A DNA stretch of 63,932 bases, filler included, from Diploschistes diacapsis (taxonomy: Eukaryota), in assembly GCA_023645945.1 (NCBI GenBank). It is 29 parts of 29 records of this genome, joined end to end, with 100 filler letters (N's around TTAATTAATTAA, not from the genome) between each part and the next. Parts side by side here need not be neighbours in the genome. Positions count along the whole stretch, not along the records: positions 42,761 to 44,183 come from JALAIB010003125.1; 28 more parts are not named here. One strand, written 5' to 3'. Position 1 is the first letter of the stretch; each line of letters opens with the position of its first letter. The position numbers and the translations under genes were made by a program. The notes under the pieces are model-generated. The model did not search any database. It was not told the DNA's origin and was given only the letters and a program-made list of their open reading frames with translations. This document shows positions 1,989 to 60,265 of the stretch, one piece after another.

Positions 1989-2932
1989 TGTTATGATCTC
2001 TATCTCTACAACGTAGACACGAGGTATTGATTAAAGTGGGTTTGGTCTCTGGTAGAAGAGGAGTATAAAAGGAGAAGAAGTAGATCGGTTATAGACCTAT
2101 ACTGATTTCTAGAAAAATAGCTTTCTAATAATAGAAGTAAGGAATATAAATTGATCTCGAGTAATCGCTAAAGATGTTTATGAAAGTAAACATATCCCGA
2201 TTTATAAGAGTTATAGCGCGTTTTTATATAATTTAGGGCGACAGTTGGTTGCCGACAGCAGAACTGTTGCGATAGAACTATTATTAATAGATAGTTATTT
2301 AAATATATTTATTTTTAATAAATATCTGTTACTGGATATCTGTTAGTCACGTGATCTAGCGTCCATAGTTGGCTATATATAAAAAATGATTAGGAAGTGC
2401 CCGACTAGCTGTAACGTATTAAGTGACCATTTAGTATTTTAAATCGTAATATTATTTCTTTTTTTTAGCCTTGTCGGCCCGACAAGTTTCGAAGAATAAA
2501 TATAAATATTAAATAAAATAGAATAGAATTTTAAATCGTGAGATAACGATCTTCTTTAACTTTTCGTAATTATAAGCTTGTCGATCGTATTTCTCGAGTA
2601 AGTAAAACCGTTAATTTCTTTTATTTCTATTGTTTTGTTTTTTACCGTTATATTATTATGTCGTTCATTTCTTCTCGCTGCGAAAGGTGTGTTTATCTTA
2701 AGTAGAAGAATTATATGTCGATATTTTAAGAGGTTATAAATAGGGTGCGCGTTTAGGCGGAATCTCGATTAGAATTAAAAAAAAGAAAAGGCGAAAGCTG
2801 TTCTTTTAATTAATAGAACATAAGGCCCGGATATAAAAATTACGAAAGATTCTAAAATTAATCGAAAAAAAATCTATAGAATAGGTTAAGTGCCTTGTTG
2901 ATCAATTGGATGAAGAAGCTGAGGCGGTTGGT
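1989..2932 (-). mobile_element. Gypsy 3' end: 3' LTR family A (1989-2451), PPT and 3' region with antisense ORF
   Basis: LTR is abutted by a pyrimidine tract (minus-strand PPT); same arrangement at 5104-6012. Confidence 0.8.
2543..2930 (+). pseudogene. Retrotransposon-borne Zn2Cys6-like plus coiled-coil ORF (RIP-mutated)
   Basis: 2622-2714 reads YFYC-FVFYR-Y-IIMSFISSR-CERC-VYLK*KN-Y; TAT positions are consistent with TGT; coiled-coil-like tail follows. Confidence 0.65.
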
Positions 2933-3057
2933 TAGGCTGGCCGTTGCGTGCCACGGTNNNNNNNNNNNNNNNNNNNNNNNNNNNNNNNNNNNNNNNNNNN
3001 NTTAATTAATTAANNNNNNNNNNNNNNNNNNNNNNNNNNNNNNNNNNNNNNNNNNNN

Positions 3058-3567: not shown

Positions 3568-4159
3568 TAGGCTGGCCGTCACTGACACTGACACGGCCGT
3601 GTCAGTGACACGGACACTAACAGTGTCAATATCCGTGTTTTAGTTTTTTTAACTACGGTGTCCGTGTCCGTGGATTCACGGAAGTGCAGTATCCGTATCA
3701 GTATCAATGTTTTAAAATTTTTAATTATAGTGTCCGTGTCTGTGTTTTTAATATAATGTAGTGTCCGTGTTAATATCCGTGTCGAAAATTTTTTTATTGC
3801 GGTGTCCGTGTCCGTGCATTCACCGAAACACTTTAAATTATTTTTTTAATTTTAATAATTCTGGAATTATCACGTCTATTTTTTACGCTTTTATTTTTTT
3901 AAAAAAATTTCACTGCGGTGTTTCGGTGGATTTATCGCAGTATTTCGGTGGATTCACGGAAATGCAGTGTCCGTGTCAGTATTAGTGTTTTAAAATTTTT
4001 AATTGTAGTGTCCGTGTCCGTGCTTTTATTATAGTGTAGTGTCCGTGTCAGTGTCCGTGTTTTAAAATTTTAGCTGTCGTGTCCGTGTTAATGTCCGTGT
4101 TTTGAAAATTTTTGCTGCAGTGTCCGTGTCAGTGACCGTGGCACGAAACGGCCAGCCTA
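3568..4159. mobile_element. Non-autonomous TIR element (MITE family B, hAT-like), 592 bp
   Basis: TIR TAGGCTGGCCGT...ACGGCCAGCCTA with dense GTGTCCGTGT internal motifs. Partial copies at 2933-2957, 39714-39976, 42761-43225, 44284-44391, 45436-45705 and 59485-60027. Confidence 0.85.
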
Positions 4160-5103: not shown

Positions 5104-6012
5104 TGTTATGATCTCTATCTATACAAGGTATACACGAGTAGAATCAAGGTGGGTTTAGTCTCTATTAGAAGAGGAGTGTGGCAGGAAAAGAAGATAAAGT
5201 AGTTATAGATCTTGAACTATCTTTAAAAAGAAAATTCTTTAATAATAAAAATAATAAATATAAATTAATCTCGAATAATAATTAAAAATATTTATAAAAG
5301 TAAACACACCCTTTTTCACGAAAATAGAACCGTGTTTATATATAATTAACTCGCTCGTCGCTTATCGTAAATCTAACGAGCGATATTTTCGAGGCTCGCC
5401 GCTTACGAAAATAAACGCGATTATCGAGCGGTGACGAAAGCTTATTCGCCGCTTACGAGAATAAGCGCGAATAATAAACGCATCACGTAACCTTTAATCC
5501 CGTAATTAACCTATATATAAAACTAAAACGTATTAAATCTGATACTTAGATCGTAATATTATCCCCTTTTTTCAGCATTATCGGCCCGATAATTCGCCGA
5601 AAGATCTAATATAAATATTAAATAAAAAAAAATCTTAAGTCGTAAAATAACGATATTTCTTTTAACTTCTCGTAATCGGTTCGTTAAACGAATTTAACTT
5701 TCCCGTTCTATCGTTCGTTATAAAATCCTTATTATTTCTTTTTATAAATATGGTTTTTTTAACGATAAGTTTTGCTTTATTATATCGTCCGGTTTTAGAG
5801 TCTTGAAATGTTCGAAATATATACGCCGTGATCGTCTTTACGTAAAAATATTATAAACTCGTTTAAAACGGATATAAAATATATTAAAACGGTCTATATA
5901 AAAGGATATTAATCGGTTTCTCGAACTTACTTGTCGTATCGAACGGAATAAATTTCTTTTATAAAAGATATAAGCCCGTATTGATGTAAAAATAAAATAT
6001 TTAACGGAATTA
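5104..6012 (-). mobile_element. Gypsy 3' end: LTR A variant (5104-5558), PPT and antisense ORF
   Basis: TTATCCCCTTTTTT immediately after the LTR is a minus-strand PPT (AAAAAAGGGGATAA). Confidence 0.8.
5647..6012 (+). pseudogene. Antisense Zn2Cys6-like plus coiled-coil ORF, second subfamily
   Basis: YKYGFFNDKFCFIISSGFRVLKCSKYIRRDRLYVKIL*TRL followed by a helical tail. Confidence 0.65.
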
Positions 6013-35139: not shown

Positions 35140-36150
35140 TAATAAAAGCGTTCGGCACGAAGCTAAAGCATTCATACGTTTATTACCTATAAACAGACGA
35201 TTAGATAAAAAGAATAAATTAAACTTTCGAATAATATTTACGATATTATATTAATTAAAACATAAATAAATAGGTTGAATTATTATTATAAGCCGAGTAC
35301 TACCTTAACAATAGATATAAAAAAATCAAGAAAATTTAAAATATATAATTACTCAATAATAAAACATTAAATAATATTAAAAAAATTAAAACTTCAAAAA
35401 AGAATCCTTAGCTAAAGAAAAGAAATAAGGTTTATTTATATATAAATAATTTTAGGATACGTAGACCTGAGACAGCCCAGCCCAGGGGCCTGCCAAGCTG
35501 GGCCTGCCAAGCCACGGCAGGGTCAATGCCCAGGTGCTTGCCAAGACACGGCAGGGTTAGGGGGTGGCTGTATAAACGGGTAGTCCCCGAACCCCTGTAG
35601 GTCTAACATCCACACTACTTAACGGTGCCTTCCTCCCATTTAGATAGTTTCTTCTTCAGCTTTTCGAATCGAGACCTTTTACCTACAGATGCCTAGCTAC
35701 ACGTAAGCCTTCCGGATCAGGCCCAGCCCCCGGTAGTATAGTATCCCATTCCTGCGCTGGCGTTTCAAGACCCTTTAAAAAGCTAGATTATGTTAAGATC
35801 GAATCCTTTTTCATCGATAAACAACCCGTCATATTAAACGAAATTAAACGAGTCAGTTATCGACTCAAGCTATTAAAGGACGTAAAGATCTGTTTAGTAT
35901 TTTATTCTAAATATCTCGAACTAGCACATCCAGATATATTATTATAGAAAACCTTTTACTTCGAATTAGACAACGAAAACGAATACGAAGTCGAAAGGAT
36001 TATTGATGTAAAGGAAGGCAGGTATCGAGTCAGATGGAAAGGATATCTAGAAAGTTAAGACATATGGGAACCTTCGGCGAACTTAGCAAACTGTAAAGAC
36101 AAGCTTAAAGAGTATTAGGATACTCACCCGTTAACAGAAGCCTCATCCTT
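35140..36150 (+). mobile_element. Gypsy integrase C-terminus (GPY/F region) and chromodomain
   Basis: RRP|FKKLDYVKI..VSYRLKL; ENEYEVERIID..YRVRWKGY..DIWEPSANLANC at ~35975-36095. Confidence 0.9.
35468..35767 (+). mobile_element. Solo LTR family D2 (300 bp)
   Basis: TGAGAC...GTTTCA with perfect TSD AGACC. Confidence 0.93.
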
Positions 36151-36564
36151 TAGGATCTAGTTCAATTGATCAGGCGATATTGCCGCTAACTCAGACAATT
36201 CTAGACCGAATTCCGTCGATAAATCTTTTTAAGTATTGATATATACCTCGGACGATTTTAAGTCCAGTTTCTCCGTTAAATAACGCGTTTATTCGTTAAC
36301 ACGACCTTTCGTTAATTTAAGAACCTTTCGATTACGACGAATGCGACGTTTATATTAAAGACGACGATCTTTATATTCACGGGATTGTTTTTCCAGCTCT
36401 TCCTCTTATTCATTATCCTCGTTAATAAGTTTCTTATCTTTATCGATTTCTTCCTTTTTCGAAAAGATAGTTCGTTCAACTACTTTTTAAATAATAAAAA
36501 TATAATCCTTTATACCCGACTTAACACAGCGAGCGTATTTAATAAAAATAGAAGACATCTTAAT
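36150..36564 (-). pseudogene. Antisense Cys-cluster plus coiled-coil ORF convergent on the chromodomain (5'-truncated)
   Basis: KYARCVKSGIKDYIFII*KVVER...RRIRRNRKVLKLT..TRYLTEKL. Confidence 0.6.
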
Positions 36565-39613: not shown

Positions 39614-39976
39614 NNNNNNNNNNNNNNNNNNNNNNNNNNNNNNNNNNNNNNNNNNNNTTAATTAATTAANNNNNNNNNNNNNNNNNNNNNNNNNNNNNNN
39701 NNNNNNNNNNNNNGAAATATAGTATCCGTGTCAATATCCGTGTTTTGAATTTTTTAATTGCGGTGTCCGTGTTCATGAATTTATAGAAATATAGTATCCG
39801 TGGTTTATATTTTTTTAGTTGCGGTGTCCGTGTTTATAAATTTACGGAAATATAATGTCCGTATTAGTATCCGTGTTTTAAAATTTTTAGCTGCGGTGTC
39901 CGTGTTAGTGTCCGTGTTTTAAAGTTTTTTGTTGTAGTGTCCGTGTCAGTGTCTGTGGCACGAAACGGCCAGCCTA

Positions 39977-40200
39977 GAAAGAACTATATATCGATATCTT
40001 AAAAGGTTATAGATAGAATACGCGTTCAGACGGAATCCCGATTAGAATTAAAAGAAAAGAAAAGGCGAAAACTTTTTTCTTAATTAGTAAAACATAAGGC
40101 CCGAATAAAGAGATTACGAAAGACTTTTAAATTAATCGAAAAGATCTATAAAATAGGCGAAATACCTTATTAATCAATTAAATAAAGAGACGGAGGCGGC
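39977..40200 (+). pseudogene. C-terminal half of the antisense Cys-cluster ORF (paralog of 2705-2930)
   Basis: Near-collinear with 2705-2927. Confidence 0.65.
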
Positions 40201-42123: not shown

Positions 42124-43257
42124 GCTATCTGTTACAATTATCTAGCTCGGGTTGATTATATGGAGCGGGAGTAGGGGCCTTTAGGGTATTATGATCCTCG
42201 GTAGGAATAAATAATGTAAATTTAGTATAATTTAGCTGAACTTTTGTCTTTATCGTTAATACGTTTTTGGCGTGCGTAATTAATGCGTCTTTAACGTGAT
42301 TAATTGATTCGTCGTTAATATAAATAATTGACCCGTCGTTGATACCTTTAATATCAAGTATTAAATCGTTGGTTAAACGTCTCGATAGCTTTCGAATAAG
42401 TATTACGTTATCGTCCTCTTTATAGTTTTTAAGTAATTTTAGTTTTTGAAAAATAAGCGTTTTATTTTTTTTAAACTTGATTGAATTGGTTTTAATGATT
42501 TTTTAAATATCGGGTATTTAGATCTTATATTATTTATCGATATTAATATATCCGATCATTATATCTTATCTTATCTTATTTATCAACTTATTTTATCGTC
42601 CAAATAATAATTTAAGATTTACGTAATTATAACATCTTAATATTCAGATACGGATATTATNNNNNNNNNNNNNNNNNNNNNNNNNNNNNNNNNNNNNNNN
42701 NNNNTTAATTAATTAANNNNNNNNNNNNNNNNNNNNNNNNNNNNNNNNNNNNNNNNNNNNGTATTAATATCAATATTTTAAAATTTTTAATTATAATGTC
42801 CGTGTCCGTGTTTTTAATATAATATAATATCCGTGTAAATGTCCGTATCGAAAAATTTTTTATTACGGTGTCCGTGTCCGTGTATTTATCGAAATATTTT
42901 AAATTATTTTTTTAATTTTAATAATTCTAGAATTATTACGTTTATTTTTTATACTTTTATTTTTTTAAAAAATTTTTATTGCGGTATTTCGGTGGATTTA
43001 TCGTAATATTTCGGTAGATTTACGGAAATGTAGTATTCGTGTTAATATTAATATTTTAAAATTTTTAATTATAGTGTCCGTGTTCGTGCTTTTATTGTAG
43101 TGTAGTATCCGTGTTAATGTCCGTGTTTTAAAATTTTAGCTGTCGTGTCTGTGTCAGTGTCCGTGTTTTGAAAATTTTTGCTGCAGTGTCTGTGTCAGTG
43201 ACCGTGGCACGAAACGGCCAGCCTAAACGAAACTAATCTCCCTCCCGTTTTTCAACA

Positions 43258-43760
43258 ATAGATCCTTCAGCTCGTCGTCAGCGCAAAATCACACACCGTA
43301 ATAAAAGAAAGGAACTTTCCCGTCTCGCCGACGAGATCGAATCCTTTCGATACTTTCCCGAGATAGCCTATAATTCTTACTTAATCTTTAATCACCTTTA
43401 CTTTATAGCTCCTTCTAATATTAACGTTGGTTCTAATAAATATTCTAAATATATCCGTTTAAAAAGGCCTTATTTCTTTCGCTCATAATTTTCGTTAAAT
43501 AAGATCCGTAATTAACAAACCGCGAAATTATTATTTCTAAAACGGGATCGCGATTAAAAATTTAAAGAACTTTCCGAGATACAAATAAGATTTAATAGAG
43601 AACGTAAGGTTTAAGAATTAACGTAGAAGGAAGCGATCACGAAAACCAGTTATTTTACTCAATAATTAAAGGACGATAACGAAAATCTATTAATAAAAAA
43701 TACTCTCGCATCGACGGATTTTTAAATAAAGTTATTCGATCTTTAGTCTGTTATCGAAGT
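43258..43760 (+). pseudogene. Antisense Zn2Cys6-like plus coiled-coil ORF convergent on the chromodomain
   Basis: 43369-43473 reads Y-x2-Y-x6-Y-x13-Y-x2-Y-x6-Y; all six codons are TAT/TAC, i.e. TGT/TGC after G>A. Confidence 0.72.
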
Positions 43761-43829
43761 CCCTAAAGATATAAATATAACATAAAAAACATTATTTATA
43801 TATTTTCCTTTCCTTGGCCTTCGAATTTA

Positions 43830-44183
43830 ACTTTCCTTCTTTTATCTTTTATAAGCTCTAACCTTCTGTTTATAGTGTTATAAATTCTCGATAGGTTCTC
43901 ATATGTTCTATTCCGATGGGTATCCTTTTTATTTAATAAGGAACCCTCTAGAACCATCATCTAGAATCTTCTCGACTTCGTATTCGTTTTCGTTATCTAA
44001 TTTAAAATAGAAGGTATCTTATAACGATATATCGAGATATACAGATTTAAAGTATCGTAAATAAAATATTAAATGGATTTTCGCGTCTTTTAATAATTTA
44101 AATCGATAATTAACTCGTTTAATTTCATCCGATATGACGGGTTATTTATCGATAAAGAAGAATCCGACTTTAACGTAATCTAA
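43830..44183 (-). mobile_element. Gypsy integrase C-terminus and chromodomain
   Basis: LDYVKVGFF..VNYRFKL..IH; NEYEVEKILDD..FLIK*KGYPSE*NI*EPIENL. Confidence 0.9.
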
Positions 44184-44707
44184 NNNNNNNNNNNNNNNNN
44201 NNNNNNNNNNNNNNNNNNNNNNNNNNNTTAATTAATTAANNNNNNNNNNNNNNNNNNNNNNNNNNNNNNNNNNNNNNNNNNNNAATACTTCTATAGATAT
44301 TATATTATAATGAAAGTACGGACACGGACATTACGGCTGAAAATTTTAAAACACGGATACTGCCACGGCCGTGTCCGTGACGGCCAGCCTAATTTTAAAT
44401 ACGCGGGCAATCTTTCGAATGCTAGTATATTGTTGTGATTTTAGGGCTTATAAATAGTCTTTGATATTAAATTTTATTAGAATCGAATTATTATTATACG
44501 AGGTAGTCATTATTAAGAAAGATCCAATGTAAGATAAAAATAATAATTTGAGGTGGCCGGAATCTGGGGATGACCGGAATCCCCGTGAAACACGTTATTC
44601 GACGTTCAGAAAGTTATCAAGATTAGTTTAGTTAAGTTTAAAGAGAATAAAATATTTATTTATTAAGAATTAAGATTATCTAAAAGTTACAAGAAGGGCG
44701 ATAACGT

Positions 44708-45435: not shown

Positions 45436-45805
45436 TAGGCTAGCCGTTTCGTGCCACGGTCACTGACACGGACATTACAGCAAAATTTTTCAAAACATGG
45501 ACACTGACACGGACACTATAATTAAAAATTTAAAACACGGATACTAACACGGACATTATATTTCCGTAAATTCACGGACACGGACTCCGCAATTAAAAAA
45601 TTTAAAACACGGACATTAACACGGACACTATAATTAAAAAATTTAAAACACGAATATTAATACGGACATTATATTTCCGTAAACTTATTAATACGGACAT
45701 TATATNNNNNNNNNNNNNNNNNNNNNNNNNNNNNNNNNNNNNNNNNNNNTTAATTAATTAANNNNNNNNNNNNNNNNNNNNNNNNNNNNNNNNNNNNNNN
45801 NNNNN

Positions 45806-58145: not shown

Positions 58146-60265
58146 AATATTTTCTTGATGGAAATCTTTTCGAGATTCTTCCGATCAAGTTCAGTTTTAG
58201 GTTTAATTTCAGCGAGCTATTTTTCGTGAGTTTAATTATTTTAGTTTAAGTAAATACCGTATCGTGATATTCTTTAAGTTAGTTTAGTTTTAGTTTTAGA
58301 TTTATTTCTTGGAGGTCTCTTCGAGTTCCTTCCGTATAGTTTAGTTTCGTGGGTTAAATGTTTTTATATTTTTTAAATGGTAAGGAACGCGATAGTAATC
58401 TTACTATAACGTGCGATAATAATTACCTATAAAAAATTAAGTTCCCGTGAGAATATATTTTTATTAAATAAAACTACTGTAAAGAAGCAAAGTTAAATTA
58501 TCGCGATCTCGTAGATTAAATAATGTGGTGACTGGGAAGCGTTAGTCCCGTTATTAACTAGATCAATCCTAGCGTGTCAACGACGCGCCAATAATATGTC
58601 AATAACGCGCCAACAATGTTTCTAATTCGTCACAGGAACCTCGGATCGTAACATCGAGCGTCTAGCATTTTCAAGTATTCTATATTAAAGTCTTTCAATC
58701 TTTCTATATTTTAACATCGACGTTATCGAATTTCAGTTATAATCTTCAGAACTTTCATTATGATTATTATAAAACGTAATATATTATAATGGTTTATAAA
58801 GGGTCTTAAAACGATCGATAATATCGTCATATTAATTTTCGCAAGATTTTATCTCGATTAATAGTAGAAGCTAAAAATTAAATCTTTTTATATTGAATTT
58901 AAGTTTGTTATTATTTTTTCATATCGTTAGTCATCGGTTAATTAAGGATAGCGATTTTCCGTTTAAGTTATAATTTTATAATTTAAATTATTTATATTCG
59001 GGAGTTCATGGCTTAAAATTATCGATACTGTTTGGCAACGTAATGGATATATTGAAGTCTAGAGGTCTTATCTTAGGAAGTAATCCTACTATGCAGACTT
59101 TTATATCCACGGGACTCGCTAAGCTTATTACCCATATTATATCTGATCGGTTTAATCAAGATTCCATCGGATTCTATAAGGTTCAGCTAAATTAAATTAA
59201 ACTAAAATTCCCGGGTTCTTTTAATAAATCTTTTGAAATGAGCCGAGTTTACAGCCATGCCTTCCGTCTAGTTGTTTAATATTCCTCTATAAACGGAGTT
59301 ATTAAGTATATTAATTTAACTAGATATCCTTAGATTAAAACCGATTGTCTTTAAAAGACATTATATTTTCGAATAATATAATAGNNNNNNNNNNNNNNNN
59401 NNNNNNNNNNNNNNNNNNNNNNNNNNNNTTAATTAATTAANNNNNNNNNNNNNNNNNNNNNNNNNNNNNNNNNNNNNNNNNNNNGTATTAATATCAATGT
59501 TTTAAAATTTTTAATTATAGTGTCCGTATCCGTGTTTTTATTATAATATAATGTCCGGGTGAGTGTCCGTGTCGAAAAATTTTTTATTATAGTATCCGTA
59601 TCCGTGCATTCACCGAAATACTTTAAATTATTTTTTTAATTTTAATAATTTTAGAATTATTACGTCTATTTCTCACGCTTTTATTTTTTTAAAAAAATTT
59701 TACTGCGGTGTTTCGATGGATTCACCGTAGTATTTCGGTGGATTCACGGAAATGTAATGTTCGTGTTAATATTAATGTTTTAAAATTTTTAATTATAGTG
59801 TCCGTGTCCGTGTTTTTACTGTAGTGTAGTGTCCGTGTTAGTGTCCGTGTTTTAAAATTTTAGCTGTCGTGTCCGTGTCAGTGTCCGTGTTTTGAAAATT
59901 TTTGCTGCAGTGTCCGTGTCAGTGACCGTGGCACGAAACGGCCAGCCTAATCTAAAACACTAATTCTGACACCACGGTATCCGTGTCACGGACACCGGCA
60001 GTGTCAGTGTCAGTAACGGCCTGCCTAATTCTAAATTTAATAAATATCGATATCTATAGACCGTTCTTAAGGTTATTTAATAATAACTAGTATTTTATGG
60101 AAATAGTAAATAATTTAATAGACTATATCCGTGTCTAAGGATTAAAATGTTTTAGCTACGTGAATCCGGAATTATTATTTGAACAATAAGATAAGTTAAT
60201 AAATAGGATAAGACTAGGGATAAGGATTGAATATATTAATATCGATAAACAGTATAAGATTTAGG

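Follow-up and report, generated by a model that had tools for sequence, protein, structure and literature searches.

The HBZ gene of human T-cell leukemia virus type 1 (HTLV-1) is a retroviral antisense gene expressed from the 3' long terminal repeat (LTR), and its product is a basic leucine-zipper (bZIP) regulator. Antisense open reading frames (ORFs) near the 3' end are also known from LTR retrotransposons. In plants they are termed aORF-3R and are found in maize Grande, rice RIRE2, Silene Retand and Phaseolus PvRetro13 (PMC7264820), of which Retand belongs to a non-chromovirus lineage (PMC11963269). The fungal example is brtn of the Boty-like elements of Botrytis and Sclerotinia, an antisense ORF between pol and the 3' LTR (PMC7264820), which the citing passages of four articles credit to Zhao et al. 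(2011, Virology 417:248) (PMC7264820, PMC8365987, PMC4227169, PMC5987419). In these passages brtn is assigned to BcGypsy1 and noted to be missing from the latest B05.10 annotation (PMC8365987), and a Boty-like gag-pol with a CHROMO domain is mentioned together with 'brtn-106' (PMC4227169). Here we analyze a 63,932-nt stretch of DNA from Diploschistes diacapsis (GCA_023645945.1; hereafter the window), in which positions 43258-43785 on the plus strand are very probably the remains of a genuine antisense gene carried by a transposon, facing the pol end of a Ty3/Gypsy chromovirus and inactivated by repeat-induced point mutation (RIP). A first-pass annotation of this DNA had set the gene against chromoviruses that encode only gag and pol, a premise overtaken by the passages on brtn, where a fungal antisense extra gene is already in print (PMC7264820, PMC8365987, PMC4227169).

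The gene lies within the piece at 42761-44183 (JALAIB010003125.1). Its frame runs from an ATA start at 43258 to a TAA at 43783-43785 and is interrupted by eight internal stops. The longer translation of 43258-43830 (+) has 10 stops in 191 codons, with codons 1-76 open, and contains EIAYNSYLIFNHLYFIAPSNINVGSNKYSKYIRLKRPYFFRS, then a stop followed by FSL; read from 43258, the plus frame gives IDPSARRQRKITHRNKRKELSRLADEIESFRYFPEIAYNSYLIFNHLYFIAPSNINVGSNKYSKYIRLKRPYFFRS before the stop and FSL. Six Tyr codons (TAT or TAC), beginning at 43369, 43378, 43399, 43441, 43450 and 43471, fall within 43369-43473 (+), and direct translation gives exactly the Y-x2-Y-x6-Y-x13-Y-x2-Y-x6-Y spacing that had been reported there. 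A basic N-terminal region, RRQRKITHRNKRKELSRLADEIESF, occupies 43273-43347 (+) and aligns with residues 10-34 of an intact outside protein, P0001, and the remains of a long coiled-coil helix at 43495-43734 (+) align without gaps with residues 84-163 of the same protein.

Intact relatives of this frame were recovered by phmmer, using the main frame with stops read as X against 1,835,955,588 representative proteins (E ≤ 0.001). There were three matches, P0001 (176 aa, E 2e-21, spanning 158 residues), P0002 (112 aa, E 3.6e-11) and P0003 (191 aa, E 1.1e-4), all of which start with Met, have a basic N-terminus and carry a heptad-rich tail after a Cys motif, PCDxCLxFGSxC...SSKCSECxRLNRPCSFRSWPSLDR. 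A later profile search added P0004 and P0005, the latter a 198-aa NCBI hypothetical protein from Trichophyton interdigitale, and a profile built from outside proteins matched 43252-43752 (+) with an E-value of 8.8e-25. BLASTP of the main frame against P0001 gave a gapless alignment (E 5e-33) in which 55 of 155 residues are identical. In the aligned range all seven Cys of P0001 are opposite Tyr, and seven of the eight Tyr of the main copy are opposite Cys.

Because natural intact relatives carry Cys at the corresponding positions (all six, except for Tyr at the fourth in P0002), the Tyr pattern is read as former Cys. The TAA at 43486-43488 (+) falls where the intact relatives have the Trp of an RPC-SFRS-W-PSLDR motif, and five of the seven main-copy stops in the P0001 alignment are opposite W, R or Q. 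The first-pass annotation had read the Tyr codons and the stop after RS in this way, and had proposed from them a hidden antisense gene for a six-Cys, coiled-coil protein; the phmmer and BLASTP matches to intact proteins bear this out. Mismatches with P0001 that C>T or G>A changes alone can explain amount to 44 of 100, compared with 12.6% (standard deviation 2.5%) in shuffles, none of 2000 of which reached 44%. The ATA at 43258 aligns near the Met of the intact relatives, and ATG>ATA is an RIP-type change. Usual RIP thresholds are a TpA/ApT of about ≥0.89 and a (CpA+TpG)/(ApC+GpT) of about ≤1.03; the indices are 1.04 and 0.53 for the piece 42761-44183, and 0.76 and 1.25 for the GC-rich 21-kb piece of the window.

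Ten columns are invariant in the five outside sequences (24-48% identity with P0001), including five of the six cluster Cys and the Trp. R10, R11, R13, K14, R18 and R20 are invariant in three intact relatives, and the basic N-terminal segment has a possible role in nuclear localisation or nucleic-acid contact. Cys spacing is C-x2-C-x6-C-x13-C-x2-C-x6-C in P0001 and P0003, and likewise in P0002 with Tyr at the fourth position, and is C-x2-C-x6-C-x9-C-x2-C-x6-C in P0005 and in a metagenome contig, L001, described below. The Tyr of P0002 at the fourth Cys position (C4) is residue 66, and the P0002 contig belongs to the Logan assemblies, built from public sequencing runs; ending at 112 aa, P0002 may be a slightly mutated or truncated transposon copy. 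All five outside relatives are singletons or nearly so, and their contigs measure 884-1784 bp. A word-index protein search found only P0001 itself when P0001 was the query and scored none of 22 candidates with the mutated main frame, for which Pfam (stops as X) matched no family. A scan of IMG/VR gave 49 pattern matches and no relatives. In a prokaryote genome scan a single locus was noted, L002 4258-4332 in a Bacteroidota metagenome-assembled genome, with 60% identity over 23 residues of the Cys motif; it was dismissed as a relative, since only these 23 residues match, and is probably an unrelated Cys-rich stretch.

On the other strand of the same piece, 43827-44183 (-) encodes the 3' end of a Gypsy pol, comprising the integrase C-terminus and chromodomain, which is RIP-mutated and runs off the contig end. 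Pfam Chromo matched the minus strand of 43700-44183 with an E-value of 3.1e-5 (24.2 bits, cut-off 25.1), the match at residues 68-113 corresponding to 43845-43982. The putative pol stop lies at 43827-43829, and the antisense gene ends near 43785. This pol end is 52% identical over 95 aa to that of piece 35140. Five base pairs from the antisense start codon, a polypurine-tract-like run, AAAAACGGGAGGGAGA, occupies 43237-43252 (-); no second copy of the surrounding 20-mer occurs in the window, and the tract is probably the 3' boundary of the internal region of the Gypsy element.

The arrangement recurs outside the window in L001, a non-RIPed contig of 1108 bp (GC 0.435, RIP indices normal) that was found with the three-protein profile. 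Its plus-strand ORF at 401-874 contains FPCDSCFSSVSLCVIMDSKSSKCSECVRHDRVC and continues into a coiled-coil tail, and its minus strand at 810-1106 encodes GPFKILEKLG...HPVFHISLL...EYEVEQILDS, matched in Pfam by SH3_Tf2-1 (E 5.7e-14), Integrase_p58_C (E 1.5e-7) and Chromo (E 6e-5). The antisense ORF and the pol end converge with an overlap of 68 bp. The first-pass annotation had described the gene as antisense to, and convergent on, a chromodomain Gypsy pol end, and had suggested looking for the same linkage at Gypsy 3' ends elsewhere; the main piece and the independent L001 both have this arrangement, at only ~27-35% protein identity. In both, the gene is downstream of pol, on the opposite strand and inside the element, the placement that defines aORF-3R. 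The whole window holds three pol ends, one accompanied by the gene, another by a doubtful version of it, and the third truncated at a contig end. Positions 250-400 of L001 also contain a TATA-like motif, ctatatttaag, and, on the opposite strand, a purine tract.

The window consists of 29 pieces joined by N44-TTAATTAATTAA-N44 linkers (e.g., 44184-44283), and the order of neighbors is artificial. Twenty-eight of the pieces are 1415-1429 bp long and sorted by falling length, and the remaining one is 21.3 kb (13742-35039), a chaining pattern that is that of unplaced contigs. The short pieces are mostly AT-rich (GC ~0.28-0.37, vs. 0.50 in the 21-kb piece). Gene copies compared within the window are on separate unplaced contigs rather than at one locus.

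Other candidate sites were scored with profiles to which only intact outside proteins contributed, the targets being the pieces translated in six frames (n = 174). A copy at 39964-40125 (+) retains the C-terminal part only (profile E 6.8e-5), its N-terminal part being cut at the sixth Cys codon by an inverted-repeat terminus at 39976. Another, at 2574-2935 (+), has its Cys region (2574-2732, E 0.028) and coiled coil (2768-2935, E 0.029) in different frames, the two segments being colinear with a frameshift between them, and it ends at about codon 142 at an inverted-repeat terminus (2933-2944). The third, at 5665-5907 (+), matched with E-values of 0.024 and 0.032. Pieces 1530, 4586 and 39714, which hold these copies, form one second family with 64-82% nucleotide identity (82% for 2574-2935 vs. 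piece 39714), and no pol end was found on their contigs. Real Cys had been reported in some copies as CERC and KCSK, and both fall on cluster positions in the alignment: these positions are Y C Y C C Y in piece 1530, where CERC is C4-C5, and Y G C C Y Y in piece 4586, where KCSK is C4. Together with the main copy, 17 of the 18 cluster positions are Cys or Tyr.

The antisense frame at 36150-36564 (-), with the motif KYARCVKSGIKDY, is possibly a third version of the gene, though unproven. As had been claimed, it converges on a chromodomain, at 35984-36121 (+) (Pfam Chromo, E 8.8e-10), and it shares 29% identity with the main copy across 72 aa, this frame scoring 25.8 bits and none of the other five more than 18.5. 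Neither of two outside-protein profiles matched it, and BLASTP to P0005 gave an E-value of 0.24. Thus, of the four sites at which divergent versions had been proposed, three look homologous (two of them weakly) and 36150-36564 is without a profile match. The further claim, that retention in at least four divergent subfamilies implies selection, was too strong, as the three apparently homologous sites amount to one other family, with no pol end on its contigs. In piece 35140 (35140-36564), a GC-rich island at ~35480-35800 stands in an otherwise AT-rich, RIP-mutated contig, directly upstream of the integrase/chromodomain end; one frame of it reads PSPGACQAGPAKPRQGQCPGACQDTAGLGGG.

Could the Tyr pattern be a product of AT-rich, RIP-mutated DNA in which no gene ever existed? 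In the AT-rich pieces 5.7% of the codons of all six frames encode Tyr. A relaxed pattern, [CY]x2[CY]x6[CY]x5-16[CY]x2[CY]x6-8[CY], has one match in the six frames of the whole window, at the main-copy site; from 300 first-order Markov simulations 0.52 matches per window are expected when stops are allowed (0.06 stop-free). The motif by itself is therefore borderline against chance, and the weight is carried by the database relatives. A chance origin is nevertheless refuted by the phmmer match over 158 residues, by the gapless BLASTP alignment and by the 2000 shuffles, none of which matched the share of RIP-explainable mismatches, and we give it practically no credence. It is also very improbable that the gene is an ordinary one of the host, or was captured as a piece of a host Zn2Cys6 transcription factor, and merely lies beside Gypsy remnants without being part of the element. 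Such an origin would suit the second-family pieces, with no pol end on their contigs, and P0001, P0002, P0003 and P0005, for which no context is available. Against it stand the convergent arrangement with a Gypsy integrase/chromodomain end in two instances of such low mutual identity, the multi-copy and RIP-mutated state of the gene in the window, like that of repeated DNA, and a Pfam scan of the relatives, in which no fungal transcription-factor middle homology region or other host-factor domain was found.

What the intact protein does is approached here through its Cys module and its helix. Gal4-type Zn2Cys6 clusters bind two zinc ions, recognise CGG triplets in DNA and have the spacing C-x2-C-x6-C-x5-12-C-x2-C-x6-8-C, into which P0005 and L001 fall; the 13-residue linker of the main subfamily is one residue beyond this range. 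An AlphaFold2 model of P0001 from a five-sequence alignment (mean predicted local distance difference test, pLDDT, 71.4) has a basic helix at residues 7-33, two short helices that each begin at a CxxC pair (43-47 and 67-72), and a single long helix at 84-163 with pLDDT 85-97 over residues 90-140, in agreement with the long helical tail that the first-pass annotation had read from the frame. Foldseek of the whole model against PDB gave no rows at E ≤ 0.001 and 14 weak rows at E ≤ 10, four of which are Zn2Cys6 DNA-binding domains, of Pho7 (6o19_A, 6e33_A) and Gal4 (3coq_A, 1d66_A), at E 3.6-9.7. VIA-align of the whole model listed long coiled coils only (Z ≤ 7.1), a list that covers the helix rather than the Cys domain, and a poor model of the domain alone (mean pLDDT 59.9) gave no Foldseek rows and a best VIA-align Z of 3.4. 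As leads only, the ESM Atlas clusters nearest to P0001 are ascomycete clusters of ~200-aa proteins, one of them (score 0.91, 208 of 256 features, 77 members) automatically named 'Zn(2)-C6 fungal-type domain-containing protein', and those nearest to P0005 are unnamed ascomycete clusters of 210 and 646 members.

A homodimer prediction for residues 36-165 of P0001 with four zinc ions (the zinc being unscored) passed at 0.56, vs. 0.00 for the best control, with 100% contact agreement between runs and pLDDT 80-82. In calibration, 21 of the 30 proteins with a solved one-chain pair attained the dimer mark, compared with none of the 23 with a single-chain structure; among eukaryotic proteins without an older solved relative one of seven passed, and the zinc makes this job unlike the calibration. 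The predicted interface is the long helix, whose residues 84-140 are homologous to 43495-43665. Contact pairs sum to ~214 (95 with 119, 91 with 123, 105 with 105), and the predicted coiled coil is therefore antiparallel.

We consider it fairly probable that 43258-43785 is a RIP-killed copy of an antisense gene of a fungal Ty3/Gypsy chromovirus whose intact product is a zinc-binding, dimeric, nucleic-acid-binding regulator. One chromovirus lineage would carry this gene opposite gag-pol, between the pol end and the polypurine tract. C>T and G>A changes account for most of the difference between the copy in the window and its intact relatives; they have replaced each Cys by Tyr, the likely ATG start by ATA, and Trp, Gln and Arg codons by stops. 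Transcription of the intact gene would start from an antisense promoter located at, or close to, the element's 3' end, and the protein would reach the nucleus via its basic segment. Its six Cys would bind two zinc ions in the manner of a Gal4-type binuclear cluster, its coiled coil would dimerise it, in the predicted antiparallel orientation, and the dimer would bind nucleic acid and regulate its own element, e.g., LTR-driven transcription or the balance of sense and antisense transcripts. The copy in the window itself is dead and without a function of its own. The parts of this proposal differ in strength. A zinc-binding dimer is reasonably likely; a sequence-specific DNA-binding regulator is a tentative suggestion, to which we assign somewhat less than an even chance. 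Speculative, and rather doubtful, is the wider reading that a widespread clade of ascomycete chromoviruses carries a miniature Gal4-like antisense regulator, a counterpart of HBZ that is distinct from canonical Zn2Cys6 proteins and undescribed as such, which would control the LTR promoter or protect the element from silencing.

Several results weigh against a regulator of this kind. With Pfam Zn_clus (cut-off 21 bits), P0001 scored 9.5 bits (E 1.4) and P0005 15.3 bits (E 0.021), and P0002, P0003, P0004 and the main frame had no match at E ≤ 10, so that the Zn_clus search proposed in the first-pass annotation placed every tested relative below the cut-off. In Gal4, basic residues between the second and third Cys contact DNA. 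The corresponding segments here are LGFGSI, LLFGSV, IHFGVV, FSSGAL and FSSVSL (n = 5), with no Lys or Arg, and the P0001-type segment CDECLGFGSIC is thus without such residues. The Cys region was modeled at a pLDDT of ~61-71 in the whole model and 59.9 on average in the domain-only model, and a PDB sequence profile search (E ≤ 10) turned up coiled coils (E ≥ 0.17) but not a single Zn2Cys6 chain. In the predicted antiparallel dimer the two clusters would lie one at each end, whereas the Gal4 dimer is parallel. As for the element, no 3' LTR was seen in the main piece or in L001 and no antisense promoter in the main piece; among the outside relatives gene context is readable for L001 only, and the L001 frame upstream of the first Cys has neither a Met nor the basic segment, which may point to an intron, to another start site or to decay of this copy. 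A search of sequencing runs returned DNA contigs only, with no RNA run listed; the best-matching DNA run, labelled lichen metagenome, held 0.45 of the words, and two others small shares.

The gene could instead encode a transposon-borne zinc and coiled-coil protein that is not a Gal4-type regulator, whose Cys module binds protein or RNA and which would act in particle assembly, RNA handling, integration targeting or the countering of host silencing. The doubled C-x2-C-x6-C is the hallmark of a binuclear cluster, and the second half, K-C-S-E-C-L-R-L-N-R-P-C, resembles the second half of Gal4; these features, the Pho7 and Gal4 domains among the weak Foldseek rows and the Zn(2)-C6 name of the nearest ESM Atlas cluster speak against such a protein, which we consider the less likely reading. 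It stays a serious alternative because the first cluster half has no basic residue, the family profile is unmet in every relative tested and the predicted dimer is antiparallel, and the search of PDB sequences for a Zn2Cys6 chain (E ≤ 10) also agrees with it. A passage of a review of extra ORFs in LTR retrotransposons calls the function of antisense ORFs at such a position unknown (PMC7264820). The Gal4-type cluster named in the first-pass annotation has the doubled spacing in its favor, but neither the family score nor the DNA-contacting residues of that class were found, and membership in the family is putative.

The gene had also been placed between the chromodomain and the 3' LTR, but no 3' LTR was seen, and the adjoining repeat has the look of an inverted-repeat element. 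The repeat, a partial copy at 42761-43225 (+) with GTGTCCGTG-type subrepeats and ending in ACGGCCAGCCTA, is ~90% identical to pieces 59485 and 3058. Its terminus occurs nine times in the window vs. 0.2 expected, is always followed by TA, and has a different flank at each of the six termini read. A complete 592-bp copy at 3568-4159 has inverted termini, TAGGCTGGCC...GGCCAGCCTA, and subterminal repeats of the GTGTCCGTG type. The differing flanks (six of six) and this copy led us to reject the repeat as the Gypsy 3' LTR; most likely, to judge from these termini, it is a miniature inverted-repeat transposable element (MITE)-like insertion beside the gene, possibly with TA target duplications. Further termini are at 2933-2944, 39965-39976, 43214-43225, 44380-44391, 45436-45447, 59938-59949 and 60016-60027. 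Four termini are in or beside Gypsy 3' regions, two inside the antisense gene, one beside its start and one at a chromodomain, which it adjoins at 4159. At the main copy the terminus sits 11 bp beyond the purine tract 43237-43252, and the true LTR may begin with these 11 bases.

Should DNA-binding regulation prove to be the role of the intact protein, such elements bring their own transcription factor, which is rare for LTR retrotransposons, and the gene would offer a handle on the control of sense and antisense transcription in chromoviruses, or on their escape from silencing, in RIP-prone genomes. For annotation, the gene is systematically overlooked, since RIP mutation or repeat masking obscures its copies and intact ones are listed as orphan 'hypothetical proteins'. 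A literature search, whose coverage did not extend to Zhao et al. (2011), returned no description of a six-cysteine or zinc-cluster antisense gene in Gypsy elements or chromoviruses.

Of the described systems, brtn is similar in being an extra antisense gene between pol and the 3' LTR of a chromodomain Gypsy element, and in both cases the function is unknown. The comparison is by description only: the citing passages mention no six-cysteine or coiled-coil protein, none of the five outside relatives is named brtn, and the copies in the present window differ in being RIP-dead. The plant aORF-3R share position and orientation, are conserved within element families and likewise have no known function; they are non-fungal, and in the passages of PMC7264820, again compared by description only, no Cys6 motif is mentioned. 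Gal4-type factors (PF00172), which comprise a cluster, a linker and a dimerising coiled coil, resemble the gene product in the doubled C-x2-C-x6-C followed by a coiled coil, in the N-terminal position of the cluster, in their restriction to fungi and in the short helices predicted to start at each CxxC of the relative. They differ in that the relatives fall below the Pfam cut-off, have no basic residues between C2 and C3 and, in the main subfamily, have a 13-residue linker; the relatives are also ~180 aa long with no recognised regulatory or activation domain, are predicted to form an antiparallel dimer, and are encoded by a retrotransposon. With HBZ there is no homology, and Pfam on P0001-P0005 gave no bZIP family at E ≤ 10, only a Myc-LZ fragment in P0005 (E 0.027). 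The likeness to HBZ is one of arrangement and kind: in both, the 3' end of a reverse-transcribing element carries an antisense gene that encodes a small, basic, coiled-coil protein, possibly one that regulates the element carrying it.

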